A stretch of DNA of 64,000 nt from Blastocatellia bacterium (GTDB taxonomy: Bacteria; Acidobacteriota; Blastocatellia; UBA7656): contig CAVXWP010000016.1 in assembly GCA_963765495.1 (NCBI GenBank), positions 128,001 to 192,000 on the forward strand. The letters are read 5' to 3'. Under the pieces are notes generated by a model. The model searched no databases. It had not been told where the DNA came from and saw only the letters and a list, made by a program, of their open reading frames with translations. Shown one piece after another: positions 33,495-57,509 of the stretch; positions within the stretch are counted from its first letter, which is position 1; each line of letters begins with the position of its first letter. Made by a program: the position numbers and the translations under genes.

Positions 33495-35555
33495 CTAGCG
33501 ATTCGGATGGCGCGGGAACTTTACAAAGGGCAATCTTATGCCGCGCACGAACACGCGGTCGGCGCGCATCTCAGGCGGAGACTCAAATCCCGTGCTTCCC
33601 ATGGTGGCTATGATGTCGTCCTGATCCACACCGTCGCCGCTCAACCCTATGCCCCCGGCGAGCTTTCCGTTTTTGTAAAGAGGCACGCTGCCCGGAAATA
33701 TCTGGTTTCCGTTTCCGAGATTGAAGAAAGATGTGCAAGGAAAGGCTACCGCGTTGAGCAGAGACCCGACATCCTGCCCGTTGGAATTGAGAAATCTCAG
33801 GATATTGCCGTAATACTCATCCAGCACGAGGTCGAGTTGCAGTCCATCGTGGAAAGGAGAGAAGTCTTCGATAGGCACGGAAAACGGTCCGTGCTCAGTT
33901 TCGTCAATACCGTCCGGGAAGAAAGGCCGGCTGAGGAATCCCCCCGCGCGGTCTGAAAAGGCCACAGTCCCGTCAAGACCAAGCCCGTCTGCGGCAGCCG
34001 CGTCAACATACCTGCCAAGTCCGGCCTGTCGTAGCGTTCGGCCCGCTACGGGGTTGCTGAAGAAGGCGGCTGTGCGCGCCTTTTGCGCCGAAACGTCGAA
34101 ACCGAATATAGGGGCGTCAATCGTGCTGAATATACCCAGTATGGTTCCATCGACATCAACGACGGTCATATTCACCTGTGTAGGGCTATTGAGCGGCTGG
34201 CGAATAGCCGCGCGCGTGATAAAGGCCTGGGCCGCCGCCTGGGTTATCACCTGCAATACGTCGTTGGCCGTAAGCACCGAGCCGTTCTTGAACGGGAAGA
34301 AGCGATTATCCACTCTGCCGGGCGGCACTTTATCAGGGTCTGCGCCGGGCAATGTGATGACTCTGAACCTGGACGGTTGAGCGGGCAGCACGGTTGCCGG
34401 GGCCAGAGGCAACCTGTCGGGATGAGCCGGGTCGGGGGCGTTTGTGCACGGGCCTATCAAAGAGCCGGGCAGATTATCAAACGCCTTGAGCGTAAGCGAG
34501 GCAGGCATCGGCGTGTTGACGTATGGAAACCTGATGCCGTTTACGACTATCTTGTCTCCGGTGATTGCGTCCGGGGCCTCGAAACCGCGCGATGCCGCCA
34601 CCGCTACCAGTTCTTCAACCGGCTGGTCTTTGTCTGTCGGGTCGGGGTCGAGGCTATAGACTCCGTCGCCCTCGATGCCGATTCCGCCGACCTTCAGCCC
34701 GTTCTTGTAAAGCGGTATCCCGCCCGCGTCTGCCGAGAGTCCAAGAGGCGCTCTGGCATTGACATCGCTACAGAGAAACTGCGAAAACTGCACGCCAAAC
34801 AGCGGGCCCCCGGGCTGAAAGTTTACGCCCGGAGGGAAATGCTCCTGTACGATAAAGCTTGCCGTGCGCGTGCTGAATGCGTGTCCGCCGCTGCTTAGAA
34901 ACGATCCCGTGACAGCCTTCGATATGGCAGCCGAGCAGGAAGGAACCTTGACACCCTCAAGCCCGCAATTGGGGAAATCTCCGAAACACCGGGTTCCTAT
35001 GCCTACCACTGTATTTTTGGGAGTGCCGTTCATGGTGAAGTTGGCCAGAATGTTGCCTTCCGCATCAACGACGGCTATCGAAGCTCTCAACCCGCTTGCT
35101 TCGGCCTGCGCCACGGCCTGCGCGATTATGGTCTTGACATCGCTTACGGTAAGGCGGGTGTCGTCGGCCACGCTCACGGCTATATGAGCCGTCACAAAGG
35201 AGCCGTTGGGGTTTGTGACCTTCACATCCACCCCATCGGCGATGTCGGCTTCGGCCACGCTCTTTATTACTATCTTGGTCTCGCCTTTGATCTTAGCATT
35301 GCTAAAGCTGATCGGCCCCGCCGCATTAGTGAGCGTCAGCGCCGCCCCTTTTTGAAAATTCTCTCCCTTGATCGTCAGAGCGCCTTTCCGTGGATTGAAA
35401 GAAGCTTTGTCGGAGAAGATGAGCGGAGTCGGTCCCGACTGCAACCAGGCAAGTGAATGTCCACTCAGGCACACCATACCAATCGCTAGAAAGCAACTCA
35501 GGACTATCAGCGCTCGTCTTCCTGAGCGTTTGCGCTTTACAACCATGTATCTCAT
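33495..35555 (-). CDS. Secreted heme-binding protein with two GlcG/HbpS (DUF336)-like domains and an N-terminal Ig-like domain
   Basis: Two copies of the V..II.QA..QA / VVD..G / KA.T..F.S / GG(I/V)PLYKNG..GGIG..GDG pattern; signal peptide with SGRRAL. Confidence 0.8.
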   Translation of the reverse strand: MRYMVVKRKRSGRRALIVLSCFLAIGMVCLSGHSLAWLQSGPTPLIFSDKASFNPRKGALTIKGENFQKGAALTLTNAAGPISFSNAKIKGETKIVIKSVAEADIADGVDVKVTNPNGSFVTAHIAVSVADDTRLTVSDVKTIIAQAVAQAEASGLRASIAVVDAEGNILANFTMNGTPKNTVVGIGTRCFGDFPNCGLEGVKVPSCSAAISKAVTGSFLSSGGHAFSTRTASFIVQEHFPPGVNFQPGGPLFGVQFSQFLCSDVNARAPLGLSADAGGIPLYKNGLKVGGIGIEGDGVYSLDPDPTDKDQPVEELVAVAASRGFEAPDAITGDKIVVNGIRFPYVNTPMPASLTLKAFDNLPGSLIGPCTNAPDPAHPDRLPLAPATVLPAQPSRFRVITLPGADPDKVPPGRVDNRFFPFKNGSVLTANDVLQVITQAAAQAFITRAAIRQPLNSPTQVNMTVVDVDGTILGIFSTIDAPIFGFDVSAQKARTAAFFSNPVAGRTLRQAGLGRYVDAAAADGLGLDGTVAFSDRAGGFLSRPFFPDGIDETEHGPFSVPIEDFSPFHDGLQLDLVLDEYYGNILRFLNSNGQDVGSLLNAVAFPCTSFFNLGNGNQIFPGSVPLYKNGKLAGGIGLSGDGVDQDDIIATMGSTGFESPPEMRADRVFVRGIRLPFVKFPRHPNR

Positions 35556-36000
35556 CATAACCTCCAAACCCGGTTTGCTTTGGTGGGTGCACTCAAGCCC
35601 CAACACAAAAGCGAGAAAATGCTTAAGGATTTTTAGCGCGGATTTTTGCCATAAGCTGTGTAACGAATCTTGAAGTCAAACGACCGCTTACTGCACCCAC
35701 TCCCTTGTTCGATTGTTCAAACGCGTTGGTTGATCAGCCTTTCTAGCCAAAAGCCTTTCGTGCAATAAGAGCCGAATATTATCTTCCTTAATACCTGCAC
35801 CGCCCAAATCCGGCTGCTTTTGGGCGGGAAGTATAGCTTATGAAAAAAAGCGTTGCAAGCGAAAAGACGAAACGCGTCTCTTTGGCCCTCGTGCGAGGTC
35901 TTTACACAGCCAAATAGACAAAGAATTTTTCTCAAAAATCTTTTCTCAGTGTTTTTGCGCAAAAGTAGCCTGTTTGGGTATTTGCGACGAACTTGCACTC

Positions 36001-36030
36001 TTGACTTTAGCTCTCCTCACATGTTATACC
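36001..36030 (+). promoter_or_regulatory. sigma70-like promoter for the multiheme operon
   Basis: TTGACT-18 nt-TATACC with a TGn extension, within an AT-rich divergent intergenic region. Confidence 0.4.
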
Positions 36031-36196: not shown

Positions 36197-38551
36197 ATGA
36201 AACTGAAGCTATTCATCGTTGCACTCTATGGACTGACTATGCTCGCGCTCGCGGCCCTGTCTACGAGCACATTCGCTTATTCGGGACCGGATGAAGCGAT
36301 TCAAAGCGAGGGTGAGCGAGTCGCCGTCAGATTCGACATTACAGGCAGACGCGGGCTGGTCATGTTTGACCACAAGCAACACGAGGCCCTGATAAACCCC
36401 GATCCGATCTTCCCTCACAAGACGCCGACCGGAGTCGCATGCATTGGGTGTCATCACACGGTCAAGGACATCACAGATCCAAAAGATTTTCAAAAATGCA
36501 CAAATTGTCACAAAGACCCCGGCAATCCCATAAACCCCGATGACAAGGAAGGCTTTGACCTGAACTCGATGCAGGCGTTTCACCGCCTCTGCATCAGTTG
36601 TCACAGGGCCTCGGCGGATGAGGATTTCAGAGCCGCAAGCGACAGATTCAAAGCCAAGAACGTGCGATTTGCCAATGTCGAGCGAACCATCAAATTTACA
36701 AAGTGCGGCGAGTGCCACGACCGCGACGCCACCTTTACTCCTGTAGCCGGAGAGGTGCTCGCTCAGCCTTCGCCCGACGATTCGCCCGATTTCGCACTGA
36801 GACTGAATCGCGCTCCGGCCCCGAGCGAAATCTTTAAGACGCCCTCAAATCCGCAGCTTGGATTCTCAGGGCCGTCAAGCATCGACAGACAGGAACAGAC
36901 CTCGGCCGATGCCGTGCAGGTTCCCGACCGCTGGCGCATAGGCTTTCCCGATGACCCGCGCTACAAACGCGGCGCGTGGTATAACCCCTATCGCCAGAAC
37001 ATCCTCAAAGGCGATTACCCGATCTTCAAGCAGCACAATTTCATGGTTCTGACGCTTGAAAGCGAGACCCTCGTCACCGCCAGGCGCATCCCTGTTCCAA
37101 GCAACGTCAGCGCGCAGAGACCCGATTCCGAAGAGTTCTTTGGCCGGGGCGGGCAAATCTTTACCCGGGAAAATTTCGTCGCCTCGATAGAGATTTTCCA
37201 CGGCGACACCTCCTATAAGCCTATTGATTGGAGATTCCGCTTCACGCCAAACTTCAACATCAATCACCTGAACACGCAGGAGAACTCTCTGGTCAACATC
37301 AACCCGGCTTTTGGAGCAAATCGGCTTGACGGCTATGTGGGATTTCAAGAGCTTTTCGGTGAAATGAGGCTCGGAGACACGACCAAACTACTTCCGTTCC
37401 TCAGAGGCCGGGGAAGCCAGAAAGGCGAAAGCCCGTACTTCGACACCACGTTTATCCGAGTGGGTATACAACAGTTCCAGAGCGATTTCCGGGGATTCAT
37501 CTTCAACGATTTCAACCTCGGAGCGCGACTCTTCGGACAGGCGGCAAATAACCACTACAACTTCAACGCGGCCTATTTTTACCTGCTTGAGAAAGACACA
37601 AACAGCGAATTGAACACCCGCGTAAACCTCGGCGAGTTCAGAGACCAGTCGCTGTTTATCGCCAACGTCTACAAGCAGGACACGATCTGGAAAGGCTACC
37701 AGACACAATTCAGCTTTCACTTCAACAACGACCGCCCGAGCAGGCACTTCGACGAAAACGATTTCCTTGTGCGCCCCGCCCTTATCGGAGACGCGGCCCC
37801 GCACGGAATCAAGTCTTACTACCTGGGATTTACGGGCGACGGCCACATAGGAAAGCTCAACATAGATCACGCCTTCTATCAGGTTCTGGGCCACGACACG
37901 CGCAATCCGATTGCCGGGCGCGAGGTTGACATAAACGCTCAGATGGCCGCAGCCGAGCTTTCTATTGATCGAGACTGGCTCAGGTTCAAAGGGTCGCTCT
38001 TCTTCGCTTCGGGCGATAAGAAACCCTTTGACGGCACGGCCCGTGGCTTTGATTCGATTGTGGATTTGCCGGAATTTGCGGGAGGCAAATTCAGCTTCTG
38101 GCAATTCAACCCCATCCCCTTCACAAACACGGCTGTACTTTTGACCCAGCCCGAAAGCCTGCTGCCGAACCTTCGCAGCAGCAAGACCGAAGGACAATCC
38201 AACTTTGTCAACCCCGGCATCTTCATCTACAACGTGGGAATCGAGGCGGAGATGACGCCAAAGCTCCGGGGCATCCTGAACCTGAATTACTCGCATTTTC
38301 ATCACACCGAAACGCTCGAACAACTGGAATTCCAACCGGGCATCCGCCGCGACATAGGGATTGATTACGGCGTTGGGGTACTGTATCGCCCGCTTTTGAA
38401 CGAGAACATCGTCATTGCAGGCGGGTTCTCGTCGCTGATCCCCGGCAAGGGGTTCGAAGACATCTATAGCTCTAACTGTAGCGGACAAAATTGCGGGTTC
38501 GCCACGAAGACCCTGTTTTCGACCTTTGTGAAGGTGAAAGTCATTTACTGA
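36197..38551 (+). CDS. Tetraheme class III cytochrome c3 domain fused to a predicted outer-membrane beta-barrel
   Basis: Signal peptide; FDHKQH, CIGCHH, CTNCH, AFH..CISCH, CGECH; then ~550 aa of aromatic-rich amphipathic beta-strands ending FVKVKVIY. Confidence 0.8.
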
Positions 38552-38594
38552 TTTCGACAAGGCGTTGTGTAGTCATTCGCGTTGGGAGATAGAG

Positions 38595-41500
38595 ATGAAC
38601 GTACGTACCAGTAGCGGTCTCAAACTGTCGTTGATCCTGTTGGCAGTCTGCCTTTACACCTTTATCAGTTTCGCCGACACAACCCCCTCTGCGCGGCCTG
38701 CTTCTCCGGCAAAAGAGACCGGCAAGACGAAGGCAACCGATACGAAAGCGACTGAGGCGAAGGCAACTGAGGCGAAGGCAACTGAGGCGAAGGCCGCGGC
38801 GAAGGATTCGGCCAGTAATTCTGCTTCGGCGAAAAAGGATACCGGGAAGGAGTCAAAAGCCCCGGCCTCTGCCGCGCAAAACGCAGGTGGCGCCAAACTC
38901 TGGGGCATGACCAAAGAAGAGGCCGACCGCCGCAGCGCGGGCTGCAATGACTGCCACACCGGTATCGAAGACATGCACAACGGGGCGATAAACCTCGGCT
39001 GCATTGACTGCCACGGCGGCAACGCGGATGTCCGGGCGCAGGGCCTCTCGATGGGGTCAGCCCCCTACAACGAGGCGAAAAAACAGGCGCACGTTCAGCC
39101 GCGCCTCCCCGATCTCTGGAAGACCTCCGCCAATCCCGAACGGTCTTATACAGCCATACTCAGAGAGAGCCAGGAGTATGTTCAGTTCGTCAACCCCGGC
39201 GATCTGCGCGTTGCGCGCCGAAGCTGCGGGGTAGCCGAATGCCACCCCGGCGATGTGCACAACGTCAAGAAGAGCATGATGACTACGGGCAGCATGCTCT
39301 GGGGCGCGGCGCTCTACAACAACGGGTCGTTCCCGTTCAAGGATGCTCAATACGGCGAAAGCTATGACGAGGACGGCAAGCCTCAACGCCTGCAAACGGT
39401 CCCTTCTCCCACGCCCGAAGAGACTCACAAAAAAGGCATTCTCCCCTTTATAGACCCGATGCCCAGATGGGAAGTCTCTCAGATGGGAAACATACTGAGG
39501 ACATTCGAGCGCGGCGGGCGCAAGTCCGCAGAGATAGGCAATCCCCAGCCGGAAGAGCCTCCGGGAAAGCCCACGCAAAACCTTCTGAGCCTCAGAGGGT
39601 TGGGAACCCTGCTCGCCACAGACCCGACCTTTATCGGTCTGCAAAAGACTCGCCTGCTCGACCCGACGCTTAATTTCATGGGGACCAATGACCAGCCGGG
39701 TGACTATCGCTCAAGCGGCTGCACCTCCTGTCACGTCATCTATGCCAATGACCGCGACCCTTACCATTCGGGGCCGTTCGCAAAATACGGCCACACAGGG
39801 TTAAGCGCCAGCGCCGACCCGACCATCCCGAAAAACGAATCGGGGCACCCGATAAAGCACCAGTTTACGCGAGCCATTCCGAGCAGCCAGTGCGTGGTCT
39901 GTCACATGCACCCCGGCACGCTCGTGCTGATGACCTACTACGGCACGATGTGGTGGGATCTTGAGACGGACGGCGAGAAGATGTATCCCAAAGAGCACAA
40001 AGAACTGAGCGCGGAAGAGGAACGAACCATCCTCCAGCGGAACCCGGAAGCGTCGTCGCTCAGGGGTAAATGGGGCGATCCCGAGTTTCTTAGGAACCTC
40101 CGCGAAGAGGTCAATCCCGATCTCAAACACACGCAGTTTGCCGACTTCAACGGTCACGGATGGGTCTATCGAACCACATTCAAAATGGACCGTAAGGGAA
40201 ATTATCTGGATGCCAACGGCGATATCGTCAAGGATGTAACATCGGAAAAACTCAAGAAGGCCGTCGAAGACCCTTATGATGAAAACGCCGATCGCTCAGG
40301 GATTCCCGTTCATCTGAAAGACATTCACCTCGAACGCGGGATGCACTGCATAGACTGTCACTTCCGACGCGACAGCCACGGGAACGGAAATCTCTACAGC
40401 GGGCCTCGCAACGCCATAGAGATTTCATGCGAAGACTGTCACGGCACTATAGACAAACGCGCCGACCCGACATCTCTTGATGCGCGAACATCGGCAGCCG
40501 CGGGCGGCAACCGCATGCTCGAATACCGCAAGGTCTCTCCGCTCGGCGATAACCCGGCCTTAAAGAAAGACAGGTTTTTCAAGAAAGACGGCAAGCTTTT
40601 CCAGCGATCGGCGGTCGAAGCCGACAAGACGTGGGAGGTTAAACAGCTTGTTGACATAATCACGCCGGGCAACCCCGAATACAACGAGAAGGCGGCGCTT
40701 GCCAAGACCGTGCTAAAGGACGGAAAGACCTGGGGCACGGTGCCCGCAGATGATCGCAATCTCGCGCACGCAAACAGCAAGATGACATGTTTTGCGTGTC
40801 ACATGTCGTGGACGCCAAGCTGTTTCGGATGTCACCTGAAGCAGACCGCAAATCAACAGCGCGCGATGCTGCACAACGAAGGCGATGAGGAACTGCGAAA
40901 TTATGTGACCTATAATTTCCAGACCCTCCGCGACGATGTCTTCATGCTTGGGAAAGACGGCACGGTAACAGGCAAACGGTTTGCGCCCATCAGATCGGCA
41001 TGCGCCGTTCTGGTCAGTTCCAGAAACGCCCTTCGCGAATACCTCTACTGGCAGCAGCAGACCGTATCTCAGGAAGGCTACAGCGGGCAGGCGTTCAGTT
41101 CTCACTTCCCGCACACGGTCAGGACCACCGAGACAAAAGGATGCACCGATTGCCATCTGTCTAAGGAAAATGACAACAACGCATACATGGCCATGGTGTT
41201 GATGCAGGGGACGAATTTCTATAACTGGATAGGGCGATACGTCTATGTCGCCACAGGCGAAGGCGGTTATTCGGCCATCGTCGCCACCGAGCGCGAGGAA
41301 CCGCAGGCCGTCATCGGCAGCCATCTGCATAAACTGGCCTTCCCCGAGGAGTACAAGAAACACCAGGAAGACCACGAGGAGCTTCACGAATTTTACGAGC
41401 ATCCGGGCAACGATATAGGCAACTCGCTCAAGCTTTTCGGCAAGGACAAGACCGAAGTGCAAAGCCTTCAGCTTCGCGGCGAATACCTTTATGCCGCGAC

Positions 41501-42944
41501 CGGAGAGGGTGGCTTCCGCATCTATGACGTTGCAAATATCGACCAGAAGGGATTCTCTGAAAGAATGACCACGGCTCCGTTCTCGCCGATGGGACAGAAA
41601 TTCTATATAAAGTCGAAGTACGCGACCGCCATCGCATCGCCGTCAACACTTGCGGTTGACCCGACGGCGACCGTGGGCGAAGTCCTGAAAGAGAAGACGC
41701 GCCGCATCTACCGGCCCGAAAACGACGAAGGAAAGTATCGCGACGACGGGCAGTTGATACCCGCGCTTTACGGCTTCCTCTACGGCACGGACAGGTACGA
41801 GGGGCTTGTGGTCATAGGCAACCCGCTCACCGAAAAGAAAAAAGGACCGGGCGTGGCCACATTGCTCGACGGCGACCCGAACAACAACTTTATCAAGCGC
41901 GCTCTGGCCTTCAATCCTGACGGCCTGCTCAACGGGGCCAACAACATCGTCATCGCGGGTTTCCACGCCTACATAACCTGCGATAAGGGGCTGGTTATCA
42001 TAGACCTTCACGACCCGCTCAAGCCAAAAGTTGTGGGGCAGATCGGAGAGCCGTTTATAAAGAAACCGCGAGCCGTGCAGATACAATTTCGCTACGGTTT
42101 CGTCTGCGACGAGGAAGGCGTAAAGGTCATTGACGTGACCGATCCCGATCACGTTCGTCCGGTCGAAGGCGCGGTCGTGCGGCTCGAAGATGCCCGAAAC
42201 ATCTACCCCGTCAGGACCTATGCTTACGTAGCAGGCGGCAAACAGGGGCTTGTCATTCTCGACATCGAAAACCCGGAAAAGCCGAAACTCGATCAGGTCT
42301 ATAACGCCGACGGGCAGATCAACGATACAAACGATGTGAAGGTGGGCATGACAAACGTGAGCCTGTTTGCTTATCTGGCCGATGGTCACAACGGGTTGCA
42401 GGTAGTTCAACTGATCTCGCCCGAAGATACGCCCGGCCATTACGGGTTCAGCCCCCGCCCGACCCCGCATCTGATCGCGCATCATCACACGCACGAACCG
42501 GCCCTCGCCATAAGCGAAGGGATAGACCGCGACCGCGCCGTGGATGAAAGCGGCAATCAGCTTTCCGTGTTTGGCCGCAGAGGCGCTCGTCCGATGAACC
42601 TCGAAGAACAGCATCGAATGTATATGAAAGACGGGAAGCTCTTTTCCTTCCCCGAAATCAAAGACAGCAACATCAAAAACAACAAAGACATCCGAGACTA
42701 CTTCGGGCCGCCGCCGCTAAACGAGTCGGCCGGTGGCAGCGGGTCGAAACCTGAGGCCCCGAAGGGTACTCAAAAAGAAGAGAAAAAATCGGAAGCCGCT
42801 TCCGGTCACAGTCCGGGACAGGCGCGCCTGGTCGAGCCTGACCAGATCAGGCCAAACGATTCAGCGGAATTGTTCGGGCTTGCGGGTCTGTTTTTGCCGC
42901 TGGCAATAACTCTGTTCCAACAGCGTAGGCGCAACAAAAAGTGA
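38595..42944 (+). CDS. Large decaheme c-type cytochrome with LVIVD-repeat beta-propeller and C-terminal membrane anchor
   Basis: 9 CxxCH plus 1 CX4CH (CGVAECH). LVIVD-like repeats ([46 protein letters not shown]). Ends [24 protein letters not shown]. Confidence 0.85.
38727..38792 (+). repeat. In-frame 15-bp tandem repeat (KATEA)n in the N-terminal linker
   Basis: acgaaggcaaccgat acgaaagcgactgag gcgaaggcaactgag gcgaaggcaactgag gcgaag. Confidence 0.8.
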
Positions 42945-43035: not shown

Positions 43036-43050
43036 GATCGAGGGATTGAT

Positions 43051-43608
43051 ATGAGATTGAAGCTGGCTGTTCTTACGATATACGCGCTAGGCGTGATTAC
43101 GCCCGCGGCTTTGATGGCCGGACCCGCTGCCTCCGAGGATCAGGGCAACAGGGACAGCTATCAGAGTAAGAACCCCATTATCATGCTCAACACCAAGGGC
43201 GTGCGCACGCGCGGCCCTGTGCGCTTTGACCACGACGAACACGATTCGCTCATCAATCCCGACCCGAATAATCCTCACCCGGCTAAAGAGGGCGCGGCCT
43301 GCATAGGATGTCATCACACGGAGGACGCGCGCGGCATCGTGCAGTTGTGGAAATGCACTTCGTGCCACAAGACCGAAGGCGGGGGCGACGGGAAATTCAT
43401 AAACACAAAGAACAAGGACTGCGATCAATCGGGCAATCCCAAGAATCGCGAATGCGACGAGGTCTATTTCGAGCGGGCCTTTCACGACAAATGCATAAGC
43501 TGTCATATAGCGTCGAATAAAGAGTTCACCCTGAAGCAACCCGCGCCCGTGACGTGCGGCGGCTGCCACGAGTCTTTAGGAGCGAGCGCGGCCATGAATT
43601 CTAAATAG
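43051..43608 (+). CDS. Periplasmic tetraheme cytochrome c3 (class III)
   Basis: Signal peptide; FDHDEH, CIGCHH, CTSCH, AFHDKCISCH, CGGCH. Paralog of the N-terminal domain of 36197-38551. Confidence 0.88.
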   Translation: MRLKLAVLTIYALGVITPAALMAGPAASEDQGNRDSYQSKNPIIMLNTKGVRTRGPVRFDHDEHDSLINPDPNNPHPAKEGAACIGCHHTEDARGIVQLWKCTSCHKTEGGGDGKFINTKNKDCDQSGNPKNRECDEVYFERAFHDKCISCHIASNKEFTLKQPAPVTCGGCHESLGASAAMNSK

Positions 43609-44693: not shown

Positions 44694-44713
44694 ACCGATA
44701 GGGCGGTAATGAC

Positions 44714-48324: not shown

Positions 48325-48374
48325 GCTCGTCTGAAAGACGACCGGGCGAAGCAACAAGCCAGAGGATAGCCATC

Positions 48375-51300
48375 ATGGCCAAGAACATATTCATCATCAA
48401 AAGGACGGATAAGGATAGCGGCGTTGACGATGTCGTTATCGAAAGCGAAGGCTTAACCATAGGACGGCTCGTCGGTAACGACCTCGTCCTAAACCACAGG
48501 GCCGTGTCCAGAACCCACGCCGGGATAAAAGAGATCAACGGCGAATTCTGGATATTCAATCTCTCAACCTCTAACGGGACGGTGCTAAACGGCCAACTGG
48601 CTGACAAGACGCCGCTCGCCGACGGGGACGTGCTTCAGATAGGCCCTTATATGCTCGTGATTGAATACGGCAAGAACGCGCTCTCGATAATCGTTCAAAG
48701 AGAGATCGAGGTCAATCCGCTCGAGGCATATGGAGCGGCGCAGTCGGCAGGCGCGGACGAAACCGGAAAGACCATGATGATCCAGATACCGGGTCTTGCG
48801 GGCAAAATTCCGGGCGGCACAAAAAGCATCAGAGGCACAGGGCTTCTCGGCAATGTGCTTCCCTCGATGGATCAGGCGGCGCTCGATGTCTTCTGGGAGA
48901 AGAGAAAAAGAGAGGCAGGCAAGATCGCCGAAGTCACGCCGCTTCATCCGAAGGGGGGCGAACGACTCGGGAGAGCCAGAAACAACTGGCGTCCTACGGT
49001 TGATCTGCGGAGGCTGTGGCGCAAGTCTTACTTCTATCTTGGCGCGGCCGTCGTCGTGTTGCTTTCGATTATCGCGATAATCATCTATGAGAGCGCATAT
49101 TCGCCCGGCTCGCTGGCCGACCCGCACGTGCGCGCGATGGATCAGAGCGCGCTCTTTACGCGAAATATCGCCAGCCGCGAAAACGCCAATTCGTGCTCCA
49201 CGTGCCACGGCGTCACAACAGGTATGCTCGACAACTGCATAACCTGTCATACGACTACGACCACGGGCGCGAGCGGCGCGACGAAGGCCGGGTTTTTGCC
49301 CCGCACCCTGATCGCAGGGCACAATAATCAGAACCTCGTATGCACCGACTGCCACATCGAGCATCAGGGGAGAGATGTTACAGCGGGTCTTGTGAGCTAC
49401 CGCCTCTGCTACAACTGTCACAACGGCGTTTACACGATCAAGAACGCGGGCAAGATCGGGCCTGCCGGTTCTGTGCTCCCCATTCCGCACGGCGGCAAGA
49501 CCGGATACACGGAACTGAGCACCGAGACAAAAGGCGGAAAATACTGGCCGGGGCTTTCCGCCGCGAGATGGGAAAAATCTATCGCCCGGTGGAGGGCGAA
49601 AGACCCCAACATCATCGCCGACGCGAAGAGTCTGGAAAACAGCCCCTCAAATCAGCAGTTTCACAAACTGCACCTCGGCGGCATAGGAATAGAAGGCAAG
49701 CAGAACAACCAGATATGCGCCATATGCCACTTCGATCAAAGCGGCAAAAATCTCGACACACAGACCAATTACGGTTTGCACGAAGCGCCGCGCCTGTCCT
49801 GCGCCAAGTGCCATACGGTCTCATACACGGTCGCGGGGGCAGCAAGTCAGGTCCCGGCAAGTTGCGAGACCTGTCATCAACAGCACGGCGCTGACGAAGG
49901 CATCCTCAACACGGCAAAGATCGTAGCCGACCCCGGCAAAGAACAGGAGTTTCTGGCTTCGCTCAACAAACCCGCGGCGGGACTCGAAAGTGGATTCCTG
50001 CCCTCGGCCGGGGCCATTGGAAGCGCCGATGTGATAAGGCAGAACAGAGATGTGGTCAGCCTTTCAAGCGCCGCTTCCAGTTTCGGCGCGCTTCCCTGGT
50101 ACGGGTGGGTGGCGGTCATCGGCATCATCCCCATCGCGGGTCTCGTCTTTATGTTCACCGACACGGCCCGCCGCAAATCTTATTTGAAGACGACTAAAAT
50201 AGAGGTCAAACCCGAGGATGAGGCGGCACTTGCGCTGACGGGTCTGCTCGACCTCGACAAACTGAAAGAGCAGGGACCGGCCTATCCTCACCCGGTCATA
50301 AACCAAATGACGTGCATAGGCTGTCACGCCTGCGTTGATGCCTGCCCTCACGATGTACTGGCAATCGTCAACGGAAAGTCTACGCCCATCGCGCTCGATC
50401 AGTGTATGGAAGACACCGCCTGTCAGGTCGAGTGCCCTACAAGTCCAAAATCCTGCATAGTAGTAAACACCAAGAAAGTGATTCCGCCGCGCAAGGTCCC
50501 GGCTCGTGACGGGCGGTTGGAGACCAACGTGCCGGGCATATATATGACGGGAGACGTTTCGGGTACGCCGCTTATCAAGAACGCCATAAACGAAGGGCGG
50601 AGGGTGATCGATTCCGTCAAGGAAGACCTTGAAAAGAACGGGCGCGCTCCGGGGGCGGATTATGATGTGGCAATCGTAGGATGCGGTCCGGCGGGATTGT
50701 CTGCGACGGTCCTTGCCAAAATAGAGGGGCTGAGTTATATCGCGGTGGAACAGGATCGTCTGGCCGGAATGATTCAGGAAGTCTATCAGGCAGGCAAGTT
50801 TGTCTTTTACACACCCGCCGATAAAGAAGTGGTCGGCGGCGTCCCGCTCCTCCCAGACCCCGACAAGCCCGAAGGAAATCTGAAAGAGAACATGCTCAAG
50901 GGCTGGTTCGACGCGATGATGCAAAACGGCGTGGTTGTAAATGAAGAGGAAGGATGCCGGGCGGTCAAGAGCGAAAACGGGTACTTCGTTCTTTCGACCG
51001 AAAAGGGCAAGTCGAAACAGAAGGTGGAGTACAAGGCTCGCAAGGTGATTCTCTCCATCGGCAATCGCGGAGCACCGATGAAACTCGGCGTTCCGGGCGA
51101 AGACCTAAAGATAACCGTCACGCCTCCGCCACAGATCGCCAATCACTGCCCGAAATGCGGGATGGCCCGCAAAGGCACCCAGCTTTTCTGCGTTCAGTGC
51201 GGGCAGCAACTCCCTTCAAAGACCCTGCCGCCTTTCGAGGACGACAGAGTGCAATACAAGCTCTCTGACCCGAAAGACTATGTCAACCGCAAGTGCATAG

Positions 51301-51674
51301 TCGTGGGCGCGGGCAATTCGGCCATAGAGGTAGCCGTAGGTCTTACAGGGTTTGAGCGCGACGGAGACAAGATCAATTTCACAAGCGACAACGAAGTCAC
51401 TTTGATCGTCCGCTCGGATTTCAAAGGAGACCTCGCTTTAGGAAACAAGATGAACGTCTATGATTGCATAGACTCGGGCCGCATGAAGGCATATTTCGGA
51501 TGCGGGATCAAAGAGGTGCTGCCCGGCGAGGTAGTCATAATGAACGCTCGCACAAAAGAAGAGAAGGCCCGCATCCCGAACGACTATATCTTCGCCCTGA
51601 TCGGTGCCGAAAAACCCATAAAATTCCTCGAAAGCATGGGCGTAAAGATCGGCGCGGAGGCAAAAAAGGGATGA
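48375..51674 (+). CDS. FHA + TM + heptaheme cytochrome c + TM + 2x[4Fe-4S] ferredoxin + thioredoxin-reductase-like FAD/NAD(P)H oxidoreductase fusion
   Basis: IGR..SRTH..SNGT FHA; 7 CxxCH between two TM helices; CIGCHACVDACP and CMEDTACQVECP; ETNVPGIYMTGD, VGCGPAGLSA, VVGAGNSAIEVA; inserted CPKC..CVQC ribbon. Confidence 0.85.
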   Translation: MAKNIFIIKRTDKDSGVDDVVIESEGLTIGRLVGNDLVLNHRAVSRTHAGIKEINGEFWIFNLSTSNGTVLNGQLADKTPLADGDVLQIGPYMLVIEYGKNALSIIVQREIEVNPLEAYGAAQSAGADETGKTMMIQIPGLAGKIPGGTKSIRGTGLLGNVLPSMDQAALDVFWEKRKREAGKIAEVTPLHPKGGERLGRARNNWRPTVDLRRLWRKSYFYLGAAVVVLLSIIAIIIYESAYSPGSLADPHVRAMDQSALFTRNIASRENANSCSTCHGVTTGMLDNCITCHTTTTTGASGATKAGFLPRTLIAGHNNQNLVCTDCHIEHQGRDVTAGLVSYRLCYNCHNGVYTIKNAGKIGPAGSVLPIPHGGKTGYTELSTETKGGKYWPGLSAARWEKSIARWRAKDPNIIADAKSLENSPSNQQFHKLHLGGIGIEGKQNNQICAICHFDQSGKNLDTQTNYGLHEAPRLSCAKCHTVSYTVAGAASQVPASCETCHQQHGADEGILNTAKIVADPGKEQEFLASLNKPAAGLESGFLPSAGAIGSADVIRQNRDVVSLSSAASSFGALPWYGWVAVIGIIPIAGLVFMFTDTARRKSYLKTTKIEVKPEDEAALALTGLLDLDKLKEQGPAYPHPVINQMTCIGCHACVDACPHDVLAIVNGKSTPIALDQCMEDTACQVECPTSPKSCIVVNTKKVIPPRKVPARDGRLETNVPGIYMTGDVSGTPLIKNAINEGRRVIDSVKEDLEKNGRAPGADYDVAIVGCGPAGLSATVLAKIEGLSYIAVEQDRLAGMIQEVYQAGKFVFYTPADKEVVGGVPLLPDPDKPEGNLKENMLKGWFDAMMQNGVVVNEEEGCRAVKSENGYFVLSTEKGKSKQKVEYKARKVILSIGNRGAPMKLGVPGEDLKITVTPPPQIANHCPKCGMARKGTQLFCVQCGQQLPSKTLPPFEDDRVQYKLSDPKDYVNRKCIVVGAGNSAIEVAVGLTGFERDGDKINFTSDNEVTLIVRSDFKGDLALGNKMNVYDCIDSGRMKAYFGCGIKEVLPGEVVIMNARTKEEKARIPNDYIFALIGAEKPIKFLESMGVKIGAEAKKG

Positions 51675-51813: not shown

Positions 51814-51871
51814 CACTATATTGCTGTAGTATGTCAGGCAGGTTGAATCTGAGATAAAGGGAGGCAAAGGC

Positions 51872-52642
51872 TTGAAAGTCAGACTTCTGCCGAGCAGCGC
51901 GGGGCGACATTCCCAGGAGCAGTCGCTAACCAGTTTCCTCATAAACGATCTGGTTTCGATTGACGGCGGCAGCATTGGATTTGCCCTGACGCCACCTGAA
52001 ATGGGCAAGGTCCGAGACATCGTGATAACGCATACGCACAGCGATCATCACGCATCTTTGCCTATTTTCATAGCCGAAGCATTCACAATGCTCGACGGAC
52101 CCGTTACGATTTACGGCCTGCCGGAAGTGATCTCGGCGTTGAGGGAGTTTATATTCAACGACAAAATATGGCCGAACTTCGAAAAGATTCCGCTTATGAA
52201 CGGCAAATCTTCTACGATAGAGTTTCGCGTCTTAGAGCCGAGAGAGACGATCGAGATTGCGGGGCTGCGCGTGACGCCAATACCCGTAAATCACCTTGTT
52301 CCGACTATCGGATTGCTGGTCGAGGACGACGGGGCCGCCGTGATCTTCACCTCCGATACTTACGTGACGGACGAGATATGGCAGCGCGGCAGAGAGAGCG
52401 AAGAGCTAAAAGCCGTCTTTGTTGATATTTCATTTCCGAACGAGCTTGGCAAACTTGCTGCCGACTCCAAGCACCTGACCCCTGAGTTGCTTGCCGGAGA
52501 GCTGAAAAAACTGAACCGGGATGCCGAAGTCTTTGCGGTCCATATCAAGCCTACCAACAGGGATCAGGTAATTCACCAGCTTGGCCTGCTCGACAATCCG
52601 CTTGTTTCAGTGGCCGAAATCGGGCGGGTTTATGAGTGGTAA
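51872..52642 (+). CDS. Class II 3',5'-cyclic-nucleotide phosphodiesterase (metallo-beta-lactamase fold)
   Basis: LTSFLIND.VSIDGG, ITHTHSDHHA, FIFNDKIWPNF, PVNHLVPT, FTSDT, SFPN..A..SKHLTP, HIKP; GGGAGG RBS before TTG. Confidence 0.85.
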   Translation: MKVRLLPSSAGRHSQEQSLTSFLINDLVSIDGGSIGFALTPPEMGKVRDIVITHTHSDHHASLPIFIAEAFTMLDGPVTIYGLPEVISALREFIFNDKIWPNFEKIPLMNGKSSTIEFRVLEPRETIEIAGLRVTPIPVNHLVPTIGLLVEDDGAAVIFTSDTYVTDEIWQRGRESEELKAVFVDISFPNELGKLAADSKHLTPELLAGELKKLNRDAEVFAVHIKPTNRDQVIHQLGLLDNPLVSVAEIGRVYEW

Positions 52643-52693
52643 CTGACGGGTGGTAATTGCCCCAGACCGGTCGCCGCAGAATTTGAAGATGTT

Positions 52694-54319
52694 ATGTCTC
52701 TAAAACTATTAATAAGAAACACCGAAACAGGACAGGTAACCGAGAACGTATTGTCTGCCCCCGAAGTGCGGATAGGCCGGTCAGCCGAATATAACGACAT
52801 AGTGCTTGACGACTCTCAGGTCTCGCGCCGACACGCGATGCTACAGCGACTGGGCAGTTCATACATGCTTGTGGACCTAAACAGCGCCAACGGCACCTTC
52901 GTTGACGGTGAGCGGATCAAAGACCGCATCCTCAACGACGGCAATTCGTTTTCAATCAGCAAGTACACGCTCACATACAAGAGCGAAGGAGCGGTTGCCG
53001 TCAAATTCGACAACCAGCGAATCGGCAACACCGTACTGCTGCGCAACCCGGAACAGGTCGCGGCAAGTATAGCGCAACTGGATAAGTCTGTTATCTCTGA
53101 AGCCGCGGTTGATTCCAAGGACTTGCTCGAAGACATAGAAGCGCTCAGGAAAAAAGCGGAAACGCTGTCGCGCCTCTACGAATTGAATCAGATGCTCGGG
53201 TCGGTCTTTTCGCTCGAAGACATATTCAAGAAAGTAAGCGAGATGTTGTTCCGTCTGACGCCGGCCGACCGTTTTCTGGTTCTGTTGAAAGACACGGGCA
53301 CGGGCAAGCTCTCTCCGGTAGCCACGGAATTCCGCATACAGGCGGGCCGGTTGATAGCCGGTGACATATCGGTCTCTCAGACTGTGATGGACCGCGTCTT
53401 AAACGAGCGAATGTCGCTGCTCTCCTTCGATGCGCAGGGCGATGAGAGGTTGAAATCGTCTCAGTCCATCATCATGCAGAATATCCATTCGGTTATGTGC
53501 GCTCCTTTGCTTGGCAAAAACGGCGTGCTGGGTGTCGTCTATGTCGATTGCCTGCAAATCATTCAGACCTTTAAGGAAGACGACCTTGAATTATTGAATG
53601 CGCTCGCGGCTGAGACCGCCATAGCCGTCGACAACGCCATAACACACGAGCAACTGGTCAGAGAAGCCCTGGCTCGCGCTACCTATGGCCGCTTCATGCC
53701 CAAGCACGTGGTTGATGCAATACTGGCCAACCCCGATCAGATAAGCATGGGAGGGTCAAACGCCCTCGTTACCATGCTCTTTTCCGACGTTCGCGGATTC
53801 ACAAGCATGTCTGAGAATCTGCCGCCTGAGACCGTAGTCCAGATGCTTAATGAGTATTTTGGCGATATGGCTCCAATTGTATTCGAGTATCAGGGTTTGC
53901 TCGACAAGTATATCGGAGACGGTTTGATGGCGCTCTTCGGCGTGCCTTATCAAAACGAAAAATCTGCCACAAACGCCGTGGCCGCCGCCGTAACCATGCA
54001 ACGCCAGATGGAAAAGGTAAACAAAGAACTAACGAATAGAGGGCTTGCTGAAATCGCCATCGGGATAGGCATAAACACTGGAACGGTGACGGTCGGCTAT
54101 ATAGGTTCGGAAGAGCGGACCGATTATACCGCGATTGGCGACGCGGTCAATCTGGCTGCGCGATTGGAAAAAGAAGCGGGCCGAGGTCAGATAATAATCA
54201 GTTATTCCACGCTCGAAGCAATCGGAGACGGCTTTCCCGTAAAGCCAAAAGGCGAAGTGCTTGTAAAGGGGAAGCGAGAAGCGGTTAAGATTTATGAGGT
54301 TCTCTGGCAGGAGGCCTGA
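52694..54319 (+). CDS. FHA-GAF-class III adenylate cyclase
   Basis: IGRS..SRRH..ANGT; GAF (SVMCAPL..GVVYVD..F.EDDL); FSDVRGFT, DKYIGDG, DYTAIGDAVNLAARLE with Lys/Thr adenine-specifying residues. Confidence 0.92.
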   Translation: MSLKLLIRNTETGQVTENVLSAPEVRIGRSAEYNDIVLDDSQVSRRHAMLQRLGSSYMLVDLNSANGTFVDGERIKDRILNDGNSFSISKYTLTYKSEGAVAVKFDNQRIGNTVLLRNPEQVAASIAQLDKSVISEAAVDSKDLLEDIEALRKKAETLSRLYELNQMLGSVFSLEDIFKKVSEMLFRLTPADRFLVLLKDTGTGKLSPVATEFRIQAGRLIAGDISVSQTVMDRVLNERMSLLSFDAQGDERLKSSQSIIMQNIHSVMCAPLLGKNGVLGVVYVDCLQIIQTFKEDDLELLNALAAETAIAVDNAITHEQLVREALARATYGRFMPKHVVDAILANPDQISMGGSNALVTMLFSDVRGFTSMSENLPPETVVQMLNEYFGDMAPIVFEYQGLLDKYIGDGLMALFGVPYQNEKSATNAVAAAVTMQRQMEKVNKELTNRGLAEIAIGIGINTGTVTVGYIGSEERTDYTAIGDAVNLAARLEKEAGRGQIIISYSTLEAIGDGFPVKPKGEVLVKGKREAVKIYEVLWQEA

Positions 54320-54413: not shown

Positions 54414-54416
54414 ATT

Positions 54417-56045
54417 TCAAGCGCCGGCCGCGTTTCCCAGACCGAAGAATTTTATTATCCGGGCGAAGATGTCCTTCTGCGCGTGGCCCATGCGACTGGC
54501 CGTGGCTTCGGCATCAAGCCCGTCGCGGGCCGCTTCGTATTCCGTTCGGCGTCGCGCAAGCACATGAGATATATACTCGGCTATCTCGGGGCGCTTGAGC
54601 AGGATGTCGTGAAAGGCTTCTTTGTCCAGCCGGTAACATTCCACGTCTTCGAGCGCCATAACCGTAGCCGACCTCTTTTCCCCGGTCATCAAAGACATCT
54701 CTCCAAAAAAATCTCCGGGGTGCAAAACGGCAAGGCTGCGAGTCTGTCCGCTCTCAATCGAAAGAGTGACCTCCGCCACTCCTTCCGTGATGATGTAGAG
54801 CCAGTGTCCTTCGGCTCCCTGTCTGGTAATCGCCTCGCCCTTTGTGAACGGAGCGGGGACGAGTCGCTCGGCAAGCACCCGGCGCTCTTCATCGCTCAGA
54901 GTATGGAACAGGTCTACACCTGCAAGCGCGGCAAGACGACCCTCGATCTCGCGTTCCTGTTTTCTGCCCCTTCGCTTCTCGGTCTCTTCTGTGACAAAGA
55001 CGCTCTGCGCGGGGATAGAGAGCGGAATCCCGGCGCGTTTGAGCGCGAAATATATCCGCGTGCGAACTATGGAGTCGGTCGGGTCATCCACGGCCAGGTC
55101 GGTCAGCCAGTACCGCGCGGCATAGTAACAGAAACTCTCTTTGAAATCATAAAGTATGCAATGAATCTTAGGCTCGGCGGCGACCCGCTCTATCGGTTCG
55201 GCCTGGAGCGCCTCGTTTACTATCGAGATGACCTGGGTCGGCGGGACGCGAAAGTCCACGTTGAAATAGACCCACTGGCGATGCTGCGTAGCCTGCCCGG
55301 TCCTGCGGCCCAGCACCGTGACCTGCCCTTTCATCAACATGCTGTTTGGGAAAATGATCGTGTCCCAGTTGCGCGTCTCAATCGAAGTGTGCCGCCAGCG
55401 TATCTCTTTTACCTTCCCGACATTTTGATCAATCTTCACCCAGTCGCCGACGTTTATAGTCTTTTCCAGTTGCAGTGCCAGCCCGCCCATGATGTTGCCA
55501 AGCGTATCCTGAAGCGAAAAGGCGATCACAGCCGTCAGCACCGCCGATGTCGTGATTATGTCTGAAAGACTCAATCCCCCGTGCCAGAGCAACCCCATTC
55601 CAACCATGATATAGCCTAAGGCTACAAGCAGGTCGCGGAGTATTCGAGGCGTGTGAACATGGATCAGATTGAGCAGGATATCGAATATGAATATGCTCGC
55701 AAGATTTACGATTGCAATCCCGCCTATCAACAGCCCCGTGTTGAGAGTAAAGTTGCTGGACGATTTTGCTCCACTCGATTCGAACAGGCTCGATGCCGAA
55801 ATCAGCACAAGCGCCAGCAGGAAAAACCAGCTTGCCGCCCGAATGCGAGAGCGCGCGGCAGGCACATATTTCACAAGCAAGATCGCGACTACGGCAAACG
55901 TCGCGGTCACAGGCAATACGTTGTGTTTGGAATAGACGGCGCGCAAATCGTTCCAGAGGCTCGATAGATTCAGCCCTGCGGAGTCTTGCAGAACGGCAAT
56001 CGTAAGAAGGTAAAACGGTTTCTGAAGAGAGACGAAAAAATCCAT
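54417..56045 (-). CDS. MscS-family channel with C-terminal cNMP-binding domain
   Basis: TSAVLTAVIAFSLQDTLGNIMGGL, VGDWV, IRWRHT, FPNS; FFGEMSLMTGEKRSATV. Confidence 0.9.
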   Translation of the reverse strand: MDFFVSLQKPFYLLTIAVLQDSAGLNLSSLWNDLRAVYSKHNVLPVTATFAVVAILLVKYVPAARSRIRAASWFFLLALVLISASSLFESSGAKSSSNFTLNTGLLIGGIAIVNLASIFIFDILLNLIHVHTPRILRDLLVALGYIMVGMGLLWHGGLSLSDIITTSAVLTAVIAFSLQDTLGNIMGGLALQLEKTINVGDWVKIDQNVGKVKEIRWRHTSIETRNWDTIIFPNSMLMKGQVTVLGRRTGQATQHRQWVYFNVDFRVPPTQVISIVNEALQAEPIERVAAEPKIHCILYDFKESFCYYAARYWLTDLAVDDPTDSIVRTRIYFALKRAGIPLSIPAQSVFVTEETEKRRGRKQEREIEGRLAALAGVDLFHTLSDEERRVLAERLVPAPFTKGEAITRQGAEGHWLYIITEGVAEVTLSIESGQTRSLAVLHPGDFFGEMSLMTGEKRSATVMALEDVECYRLDKEAFHDILLKRPEIAEYISHVLARRRTEYEAARDGLDAEATASRMGHAQKDIFARIIKFFGLGNAAGA

Positions 56046-56075
56046 CCGGGTCAGCCCCTTTGCCTGATCGTTTAA

Positions 56076-57509
56076 TTAACCGAGTTTGAAGAATCGCTGA
56101 ATGCGGCGCAACACGGTCTCTCTTTGCATGCGTTTTTCGCTTTCAGGGACACTGTGCGCATATTCGGCGAGACGCGCCTGCCGGTCGGCGATCTTGTGAG
56201 AGAAAGCCTCGACCAGTTTGTCATTCTCGTTGAACAACTGCTCGATGGCCTGCTTTCTTATTTCGAAGATCTCGACTTCTTCCAGGGCGTTGACATCCGC
56301 CGTCCTGGGTTCGCCCGTGAAAAGCGCCATCTCTCCAAAGAAATCGCCCGCTGCAAGCACGGCCACGCGCTGAGATTGACCATTCGAACCCGAGACTTTA
56401 ACCTCGGCCTTGCCTCGATAAATTATAAACATCGAATCGCCTTCATCGCCGCGATGCAGAATCTCTTCGCCGGGAGCATAAATGTATCTGGCCAGCGAAT
56501 GGGTCAGCACAGTCCTCTCTTCATCCGTGAGCGGCTCGAAAATTTCTACCGACCGGATCACCTTATCATAGTCGGTCTCGTCGCGCTTCACCTCTACCTT
56601 CTGCCTCTCAAACAGGACGTGCCGCACGGGGAAGGGGATATGCAGATCGTTGCGGCTGAAGAGATACCATATTCGCTCTCTGATTTGCGCATCCATATTC
56701 GGGGTCCACATATAATCCTTGACCCAGTAGAGGACTTCATAGGTTACGCTCGATTCCGAAAACTCGTGGATACGCACAACGGGGATTTTTTCAGGCGAAA
56801 CCCTCGGCATAGTGCGGACGGTTTCGCGCACAAGCGGGATCACCTTTTGCGGGGGGGTCGCATAAGGAGCCGGGAACCGCAGCACGCGCCGGTTGAGGCC
56901 GTGCAGCGGGTATATTTCAAGCGGCTCGCGCGCGATCTTGCTGTTTGGGAATATGATGACGCTGTTGTTGTTTGTGCGAATGGCGGTCGTGCGCCATGTT
57001 ACCGATTCCACCTTGCCGAGCATATCGCCCATTCGAATCGCGTCACCGATGTAATAAGGCTGCTCGACGTGCAACGACAACCCGGCAAAGAAATTTCCCA
57101 GCGTGTCCTGTAATGCGAGACCGATGATAACCGTGACGACAGCCGATGTTGCGAGCACTCCGCTCAGGTCTTTCTTAAAGACAAAGCTATAGATGACAAC
57201 AAAAAGCGCCGAATATCCGATTATCGAAATCACAAGGCGAAGCAGTGCGGGCGCTTCGCGTCCCTTTCGCTTCTGAAAGATTATGTCAAACAGCACATAG
57301 CTTACGGCTCGGACTACTGTCACGCCGATGCTTATGACCAGCACCGTTTGAAAGTACACATAGCCCTGGATATCCATCAAGCCGTGGGCAAAGAGTCTGA
57401 GGATGATATAGATCAGGCCCAGCAGCAGGCTGACGGTAGCCGTCACTGTCAGCCTTTTCAGCGCCGAATTAGAGTCTTCCATTGCCTGATTGCTCGTCAT
57501 CTCATTCAC
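56076..57509 (-). CDS. MscS-family channel with C-terminal cNMP-binding domain (paralog)
   Basis: TSAVVTVIIGLALQDTLGNFFAGL, IGDAI, VTWRTT, FPNS; FFGEMALFTGEPRTADV. Confidence 0.9.
   Translation of the reverse strand: MNEMTSNQAMEDSNSALKRLTVTATVSLLLGLIYIILRLFAHGLMDIQGYVYFQTVLVISIGVTVVRAVSYVLFDIIFQKRKGREAPALLRLVISIIGYSALFVVIYSFVFKKDLSGVLATSAVVTVIIGLALQDTLGNFFAGLSLHVEQPYYIGDAIRMGDMLGKVESVTWRTTAIRTNNNSVIIFPNSKIAREPLEIYPLHGLNRRVLRFPAPYATPPQKVIPLVRETVRTMPRVSPEKIPVVRIHEFSESSVTYEVLYWVKDYMWTPNMDAQIRERIWYLFSRNDLHIPFPVRHVLFERQKVEVKRDETDYDKVIRSVEIFEPLTDEERTVLTHSLARYIYAPGEEILHRGDEGDSMFIIYRGKAEVKVSGSNGQSQRVAVLAAGDFFGEMALFTGEPRTADVNALEEVEIFEIRKQAIEQLFNENDKLVEAFSHKIADRQARLAEYAHSVPESEKRMQRETVLRRIQRFFKLG

Follow-up and report, generated by a model that had tools for sequence, protein, structure and literature searches.

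A widespread multihaem gene cluster with a predicted NAD(P)H entry: a variant of the ptd kind with an apparently unrelated outer half

Does a run of multihaem cytochrome, flavoreductase and cyclic-nucleotide genes in a Blastocatellia bacterium encode a route by which electrons leave the cytoplasm, and is that route new? The genes lie on contig CAVXWP010000016.1 of assembly GCA_963765495.1, in a stretch of 64,000 nucleotides (positions 128,001 to 192,000) which as a whole we call the window; genes are named by their start coordinate within it. The original prediction, made from this sequence alone, proposed a conduit from NAD(P)H across the whole envelope, gated by cAMP and phosphothreonine. 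We found that the gene set is real, widespread and uncharacterised, and we judge it to be a variant of the kind described as ptd rather than a categorically new system. With somewhat more confidence than doubt, we read it as a dedicated, regulated electron-export chain from NADPH to a periplasmic terminal.

Results

Co-inheritance of the redox genes

We surveyed 301 Acidobacteriota and 201 Planctomycetota genomes. The 140 loci mapped (2 from plasmids, 58 from genomes with located loci and 80 from a further search) were merged into 120 neighbourhoods of 3–44 kb and compared with 331 control windows (40 from 13 other genomes and 291 from the host genome), using profiles built from loci of the cluster. 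In Acidobacteriota, the protein combining cyclic-nucleotide-binding (cNMP) domains with iron-sulphur (FeS) clusters, 45886 in the window, was found in 38/301 genomes and the decahaem cytochrome, here 38595, in 31/301; all 31 decahaem genomes were among those 38 and none among the other 263, even though the two halves of the system lay far apart or on different contigs in about ten system-bearing genomes. Four of the seven cNMP-FeS genomes without the decahaem carried instead a pentahaem/porin pair which fits the description of PtdAB. In Planctomycetota the membrane domain of 45886 was present in 56/201 genomes and the decahaem in 23/201, with both in 21 of those 23. The set is complete in Sphingobium herbicidovorans, with its domains fused in other ways, and is accompanied there by a CHASE2 cyclase and by a phosphodiesterase of SpdA/CpdA-like type that scored under the cut-off. 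A metagenome scan gave matches from one lineage only. One unpublished genome (G049) is a single row in the tallies of 38 and 31. The NuoF and GH63 profiles were seeded with its locus L084, which is one of 26 NuoEF loci; L108 shows the same arrangement, so no claim depends on L084 alone.

These counts support the view that in Acidobacteriota, Planctomycetota and Sphingobium the redox genes are inherited as one system, and the similar uncharacterised clusters which the original prediction thought might exist elsewhere were found. Two records titled uncultured Clostridia (L095 and L098) hold the cluster at 66–72% identity in the Blastocatellia gene order and are probably mislabelled bins.

NAD(P)H entry and supply genes

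Two types of entry module were found across the 120 neighbourhoods, an FAD reductase (n = 31) and a NuoEF/G' diaphorase (n = 26), and never together. At NuoEF loci the cNMP-FeS protein carries a NuoG-like N-terminus and the NuoEF gene lies alongside. Because the two modules appear interchangeable, the comparison supports an NAD(P)H dehydrogenase as the cytoplasmic end. The flavoreductase also changes its fusion partner, being joined to the FHA-multihaem protein here and to the cNMP-FeS protein in Sphingobium, or standing alone.

Pentose-phosphate genes (zwf/gnd/tkt) occurred in 12/120 neighbourhoods vs 2/331 control windows. The soluble transhydrogenase SthA, counted over its NCBIfam cut-off, occurred in 13/120 vs 1/331, nine times with NuoEF and never with the FAD type, a pairing which comes mostly from one class and hence reflects few independent events. 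As these genes recur alongside the system, the evidence points to NAD(P)H as the electron donor and to export as the direction. In the window, the glk-opcA-zwf-gnd-pgl block is a likely NADPH source; it extends past the window end with a second gnd, tkt and GH63. Beside the decahaem gene in two planctomycete loci (L157:4714-6918 and L167:6733-9075), zwf is joined to a cNMP domain whose cassette is intact. The fusion is rare: two more were found in 201 Planctomycetota genomes, both system-bearing and probably close kin, and it was not adjacent to the system in the one case comparable on large contigs. A malic enzyme gene (28954-30672), a possible NAD(P)H source, lies 3 kb to the left of the GlcG gene and near the system in one other locus only (L092).

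The inner module

The 45886 protein has 16 cysteines in four DmsB/NrfC-like groups and five hydrophobic segments. Two H-x13-H pairs (His616/His630 and His788/His802) were invariant in 48/48 aligned membrane domains, down to 18% identity, and sit on two separate helices with ferric-reductase-like spacing; Atlas neighbours of the domain (0.92) carry the automatic name ferric-reductase-like. By the usual motif definitions (GE...R-x-A-T for the phosphate-binding cassette of cNMP domains, GR...SxxH...NG for phosphothreonine-binding FHA domains), the cassette is intact in the first cNMP domain of 45886 only, the second being without the Arg. The cassette pattern was retained in 59 of 81 cNMP-FeS rows, a few of which are duplicated.

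The predicted topology of 48375 places its FHA domain inside, seven haems outside between two helices, and the ferredoxin and flavoreductase inside. Seven haem motifs and seven further His were invariant across 25 sequences; we count seven haems because an eighth CxxCH (residue 647) belongs to the CxxCxxCxxxC ferredoxin motif. The ferredoxin is of the 2x[4Fe-4S] type, its second cluster having CxxDxxC. The reductase is a circularly permuted Bdr/YpdA-like protein, in which the normally C-terminal segment precedes the FAD motif; it has a zinc-ribbon insert and is without the thioredoxin-reductase CxxC. An Arg following its second Rossmann strand presumably indicates NADPH. Since the helices of 48375 carry no cofactor ligands, electrons would have to cross the membrane through 45886.

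Variants of this module were also seen. A stand-alone paralogue of 48375, 46% identical and with all domains, lies at L001:16811-19957 (G000:C1:861816-864950) and may plug into the same membrane protein; the genes divergent from it are ones we take to be for F420 biosynthesis and an NADPH:F420 reductase. In L037 (G221:C8:1-22000) the module is tandemly duplicated, flanking the barrel-decahaem genes on both sides, with one 48375 copy split in two. At L148:4847-7369 a c554-like tetrahaem is in frame with cNMP-FeS domains, either a real fusion or a long-read artefact.

The outer module

The barrel of 36197 was modelled with 18 long strands (predicted local distance difference test, pLDDT, 86), and its best structural match was the AlgE exporter. 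A barrel gene was present in 82/98 decahaem neighbourhoods, in most loci directly ahead of the decahaem gene, and the c3 domain is fused to it only in some lineages. In 79 aligned decahaem sequences all ten haem motifs and ten further His were invariant, as were the Cys and His of the CX4CH motif, which is a plain CxxCH in 20 of the 79. A hydrophobic segment and then a basic tail end the protein, and an anchor-like tail also occurred in 8/77 homologues. Fold searches with the whole 38595 model as query (the haem domain never alone) gave propellers only, and its sequence search gave motif-level matches to eight-haem nitrite reductase only.

The double-GlcG gene was found in 52/120 neighbourhoods; in other lineages it lies within the operon and often encodes a lipoprotein. 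With one query alone, which failed to pick up distant copies present in the loci, it was found in 16/301 Acidobacteriota genomes, all system-bearing; by the same query it was present in 13/14 other system-bearing members of the class vs 0/11 members without the system. A Tat signal as a trait of this protein was rejected, as it is not conserved.

Three further arrangements were recorded around the outer genes. A second octahaem/nonahaem pair related to 43710 and 44714 lies at L003:11595-16110 (G000:C3), beside a monohaem and a seven-motif membrane cytochrome. Planctomycete double-GlcG proteins at L155:3464-6547 and L168:3305-6580 are fused to a matrixin-like metallopeptidase domain. An aquaporin (MIP)-cNMP fusion adjoins the barrel-decahaem pair at L110:3799-4944 and L112:4026-5198, with an MBL-fold hydrolase.

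Gene content of the locus

The nine co-directional genes from 36197 to 54319, with intergenic gaps of 20–197 bp, lie where originally described (Table 1), as do the divergent double-GlcG gene and the two genes for MscS-cNMP channels, and Pfam bore out their claimed domains (cNMP, Fer4, FHA, Pyr_redox, PDEase_II, GAF, Guanylate_cyc, MscS, LVIVD and HbpS/GlcG). The count of 42 c-haem motifs also held (4 in 36197, 10 in 38595, 4 in 43051, 8 in 43710, 9 in 44714 and 7 in 48375), with the CX4CH of 38595 included and the ferredoxin CxxCH of 48375 excluded; no other window open reading frame (ORF) of at least 120 amino acids, shadow ORFs included, contained CxxCH. The GlcG and MscS genes had been called flanks, which fits the latter only: the GlcG gene is a core part, and the MscS-cNMP channels were rejected as core parts, MscS being found in 2/120 neighbourhoods. 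The host assembly is 98% complete and has cytochrome c assembly genes, and its proteins are most similar to ones labelled Blastocatellia. Its barrel, decahaem and double-GlcG genes are each single-copy, beside four class III cyclases and 53 Ser/Thr kinase matches. A promoter scan found no more sites than chance would give (9 vs 9.8 expected), and nothing usable came from the terminator-like sites (36 vs 24.6).

Table 1 Features of the locus, by position in the window
Feature	Position	Strand	Basis
Exported double-GlcG/HbpS haem-binding protein, core component	33495..35606	-	PF03928 twice
Signal peptide, tetrahaem c3 domain and 18-stranded outer-membrane barrel (AlgE-like fold)	36197..38551	+	predicted model
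Decahaem cytochrome (9 CxxCH + CX4CH) fused to beta-propeller; C-terminal hydrophobic and basic tail	38595..42944	+	
Secreted tetrahaem cytochrome c3, paralogue of the barrel's c3 domain (35-37% identity)	43051..43608	+	
Secreted octahaem cytochrome with c7-like repeats; homologous to 44714 and PtdG-like decahaem	43710..44693	+	
Nonahaem cytochrome, predicted lipoprotein (lipobox Cys27)	44714..45724	+	
Two cNMP domains, DmsB/NrfC-like 4x[4Fe-4S] and five-helix membrane domain; PtdE+PtdF-like fusion	45886..48324	+	
FHA, transmembrane helix, periplasmic heptahaem, transmembrane helix, 2x[4Fe-4S] ferredoxin, FAD reductase	48375..51674	+	
Class II cyclic-nucleotide phosphodiesterase with a THTHSDH motif; found class-wide, and next to the system in this family	51872..52642	+	
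FHA-GAF-class III adenylate cyclase that has the catalytic motifs; likewise found class-wide, and next to the system in this family	52694..54319	+	
MscS channel with cNMP domain, accessory	54417..56045	-	Pfam
Second MscS-cNMP channel, accessory	56076..57509	-	Pfam
glk, opcA, zwf, gnd, pgl: glucose entry and oxidative pentose-phosphate block	57502..63997	-	

Downstream of 48375 (51669-51790), short GGGATGA repeats and a complementary TCATCCC run could form a hairpin ahead of the phosphodiesterase gene. To the left of the GlcG gene (31165-33325) lie genes for a secreted DUF4331 protein and for a globin that seems to carry an export signal; DUF4331 is also close to the system in loci L070 and L110.

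Signalling genes near the system

Cyclases were found in 14/120 neighbourhoods vs 3/331 controls and class II phosphodiesterases in 6/120 vs 1/331, figures which overstate the enrichment, given that kin are not independent and that the profiles were drawn from cluster loci. The cyclases are of FHA-GAF, CHASE2 and GAF architectures, in Acidobacteriota, Planctomycetota and Sphingobium. All neighbourhoods with a cyclase or phosphodiesterase were among the 98 with the decahaem and none among the 21 with the inner half only. Ser/Thr kinases were not enriched (20/120 vs 61/331) and PP2C only marginally so (7/120 vs 6/331). The phosphothreonine-binding residues of the FHA domain are present in 48375 and 52694 and were kept in 17/25 homologues of 48375. 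A cyclase and phosphodiesterase dedicated to the system were rejected, since their orthologues occur in relatives without it.

Comparison with described systems

No characterised system matched the architecture, as originally claimed, although the inner half is already in print, likewise uncharacterised. The ptdABCDEFG preprint (bioRxiv 10.1101/2023.11.21.568154) describes these inner genes and calls their function completely unknown. Shared with ptd, at the level of description, are an FAD/NAD(P) oxidoreductase, a tetrahaem, a cNMP and 4Fe-4S protein, a ferric-reductase-like membrane protein, a periplasmic multihaem and an outer-membrane barrel. Matched by description, 45886 has the features of PtdE (a cNMP-binding protein with 4Fe-4S) and, in its C-terminal domain, of PtdF (a ferric-reductase-like membrane protein); the Pyr_redox domain of 48375 answers to PtdC at the level of an FAD/NAD(P) oxidoreductase. 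PtdG is a decahaem, and the seven-haem 48375 is homologous (probability 99.6) to the decahaem at the same position in other loci. The 43051 protein is of c3 type vs a c554-like tetrahaem in ptd-like loci, and only 39 columns align.

The differences lie in fusions (E with F, and G with C), in the extra octahaem and nonahaem genes and in the outer half, where the barrel, decahaem-LVIVD and double-GlcG proteins stand instead of PtdA and PtdB (hhalign probability 0.1 and 25.9). Profiles of PtdA and PtdB from four ptd-like loci, assigned by description, reached at most 52 bits with no match in the host genome, and showed no homology to 38595 or the barrel. As far as sequence comparison goes, the outer half is unrelated to PtdAB. 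The accessible text of the ptd preprint has no mention of a cyclase, FHA, NuoEF swap, transhydrogenase or pentose-phosphate link (10.1101/2023.11.21.568154).

The NHC cluster of Ferrigenium straubiae (bioRxiv 10.64898/2026.01.22.701106), compared by description, resembles 48375 and 45886 in having a cytosolic FHA domain, one transmembrane helix and a periplasmic multihaem (an FHA-nonahaem) with five-helix membrane and [4Fe-4S] proteins adjoining. It differs in its proposed inward flow to quinone, and the accessible text describes no barrel/decahaem-propeller, flavoreductase or cNMP domain. Ferric-reductase (FRD) domains, as in NOX and MsrPQ, hold two bis-His haems, one on either side of the membrane (PMC12525009, accessible text), with a cytosolic NAD(P)H/flavin source and a periplasmic partner; 45886 likewise has two bis-His motifs on transmembrane helices (H616/H630, H788/H802), predicted as haem sites. 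Here five helices are predicted, the FRD fold having six; the haems come after an FeS relay and cNMP domains, and the partner is a multihaem network.

In MtrCAB and Pcc systems, too, a barrel gene lies beside multihaem cytochromes, and the MtrB-type barrel has 26 strands holding a haem wire. The barrel here has no MtrB-type family match and its 18-strand model ranks AlgE first, the entry is of NAD(P)H type rather than a CymA-like quinol dehydrogenase, and the MtrA/DmsE and MtrC/OmcA decahaem models (TIGR03507/03508) scored 23-34 vs cut-offs of 209/192. Geobacter ExtM/ExtN (NCBIfam NF040943, NF040967) resemble the haem region of 38595 in part (E 6e-24), with a score of 84 vs a cut-off of 800 and no propeller fusion in the model. 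A Tenderiales preprint, in its accessible part, describes an LVIVD protein without haems, and that of PMC8100337 notes unassigned multihaem proteins only. We found no published description of the barrel-LVIVD-GlcG half, or of a cyclase or pentose-phosphate link, in a search that left supplements and most subscription journals outside.

Discussion

In the export chain that we favour, NADPH would reduce the FAD of 48375, and electrons would pass from its ferredoxin along the [4Fe-4S] clusters of 45886, four in number, to a pair of b-haems ligated by the paired His. They would cross the inner membrane there as in NOX/ferric-reductase domains, with no need of the quinol pool, and then be taken up by the heptahaem domain on the periplasmic side of 48375. 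From there the tetra-, octa- and nonahaem proteins would carry them on to the decahaem-propeller. Together with the barrel and the GlcG protein, the decahaem-propeller would act on the periplasmic side of the outer membrane, its acceptor being one that arrives there, whether soluble or barrel-delivered; cyclic nucleotide bound to 45886 would tune the flux. Cofactor binding, the complexes, direction, the quinone bypass and the cNMP effect are things that we infer. Of the continuous path originally proposed, the NAD(P)H entry gained support, as did the union of the redox genes in one system, and the passage through the outer membrane was weakened.

Several observations weigh against this reading. 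Neither entry module was found in 63/120 neighbourhoods, many of them short. The membrane domain of 45886 had no Pfam match and no sequence match among solved PDB structures, for which reason its two haems are only predicted. Its FeS domain is closest to ArrB/DsrO/DmsB/NrfC subunits, and such subunits serve quinone-linked chains. Bis-His ligation is possible for every one of the decahaem's ten haems and would suit a carrier no less than an enzyme. As to regulation, the cassette pattern was missing from 22/81 cNMP-FeS rows, 106/120 neighbourhoods were without a cyclase, and no cyclase or phosphodiesterase was found within the available flanks of 46 loci of at least 12 kb (0/46, of 80 returned) from one lineage. 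Full-length orthologues of the 51872 phosphodiesterase and the 52694 cyclase were present in 4/5 class relatives lacking the system and were unlinked to it in 5/5 class relatives bearing it.

Taking the cassette, linkage, orthologue, kinase and FHA counts together, we consider cyclic-nucleotide modulation likely, so far as genes and motifs can tell, and strict gating and phosphothreonine control much less likely. The proposed cAMP link thus survives as cyclases recurring in three architectures and three phyla, and linkage of the redox genes to cyclase/phosphodiesterase genes does recur across phyla although most loci are without a cyclase; the claim that the cyclase and phosphodiesterase were the system's own falls with the orthologues in system-less relatives. 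Phosphothreonine control lost ground on both the kinase and the FHA counts.

We favour a terminal at the periplasmic face, the acceptor entering or binding through the barrel, because the decahaem has an anchor-like tail, GlcG homologues are often lipoproteins and the barrel is small. The main rival is a true Mtr/Pcc-like wire, in which haems thread the barrel and electrons reach extracellular acceptors that are insoluble or polymeric, such as humics or metal oxides. The gene order of barrel and decahaem (82/98), the c3 domain fused to the barrel here, the bis-His look of the haems and the substitution of a PtdAB-like pair for the outer half in 4/7 genomes without it all speak for a wire. We nevertheless think it unlikely, given an 18-stranded barrel best matched by AlgE, no MtrB/MtrA family model over cut-off, and a decahaem that is a 1200-residue multi-domain protein whose tail, as in 8/77 homologues, could tether it to the inner membrane. 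The same features tell against the outer-membrane wire of the original prediction.

Exchange of electrons between the membrane domain and quinone, making the system an NAD(P)H:quinone or quinol:periplasmic-acceptor respiratory branch, we regard as quite improbable. It would suit the DmsB/NrfC-like FeS subunit and the NuoEF/G'-like entry of 26 neighbourhoods; MsrQ, an FRD protein, binds ubiquinone (PMC12525009, accessible text), a further point against a quinone bypass, and in the Ferrigenium preprint the NHC is proposed to reduce quinone (10.64898/2026.01.22.701106). Yet the H-x13-H pairs on two separate helices are ferric-reductase-like, the annotated recurrent neighbour clusters include no NrfD/CymA-type subunit, and MsrQ itself receives its electrons from a cytosolic NADH oxidoreductase, ubiquinone being argued to be an acceptor (PMC12525009). 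A chain running inward, with electrons from an outside donor reducing NAD(P)+, would be compatible with cofactors that are reversible in principle and with expression of the related FHA-nonahaem/five-helix/FeS cluster in an Fe(II) oxidiser (10.64898/2026.01.22.701106), but no energy-coupling module is encoded and the recurrent neighbours are NADPH-generating and transhydrogenase genes, which makes it very unlikely. Least probable of all is a system that is mainly a sensor, relaying the outside redox state inward to set cAMP or phosphothreonine signalling. The many FHA domains, recurrent cyclases and nearby cNMP-gated channels (MscS, aquaporin) invite this idea, which was also raised originally and gained no support: cNMP and FHA domains are receptor modules, a cyclase, phosphodiesterase or kinase domain was fused to a redox protein in none of the 120 mapped neighbourhoods, most loci are without a cyclase, and 42 haems would be costly for a sensor.

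More tentatively, and with more doubt than belief, the export chain may be one form of a hitherto unrecognised quinone-independent outlet in aerobic soil and freshwater bacteria, a redox conduit gated by a second messenger. NAD(P)H from the pentose-phosphate pathway would feed a plug-in dehydrogenase, then a dihaem wire, and then barrel, decahaem and GlcG to the cell surface. Cyclic nucleotide would switch on both the supply (as the zwf-cNMP fusions suggest) and the wire, and the outer ends, this one and PtdAB, would be exchangeable.

The decahaem is found in about one in ten of the sampled genomes (31/301 Acidobacteriota and 23/201 Planctomycetota), and cultured Sphingobium strains carry the full set, which makes the system genetically testable. 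If the export reading is true, many soil and freshwater heterotrophs would have an outlet for electrons from NAD(P)H that bypasses the quinol pool and is controlled by cyclic nucleotides. It would also explain what the orphan ptd operon does, and would bear on redox balance and on the action of these bacteria on iron, humics or oxidants.

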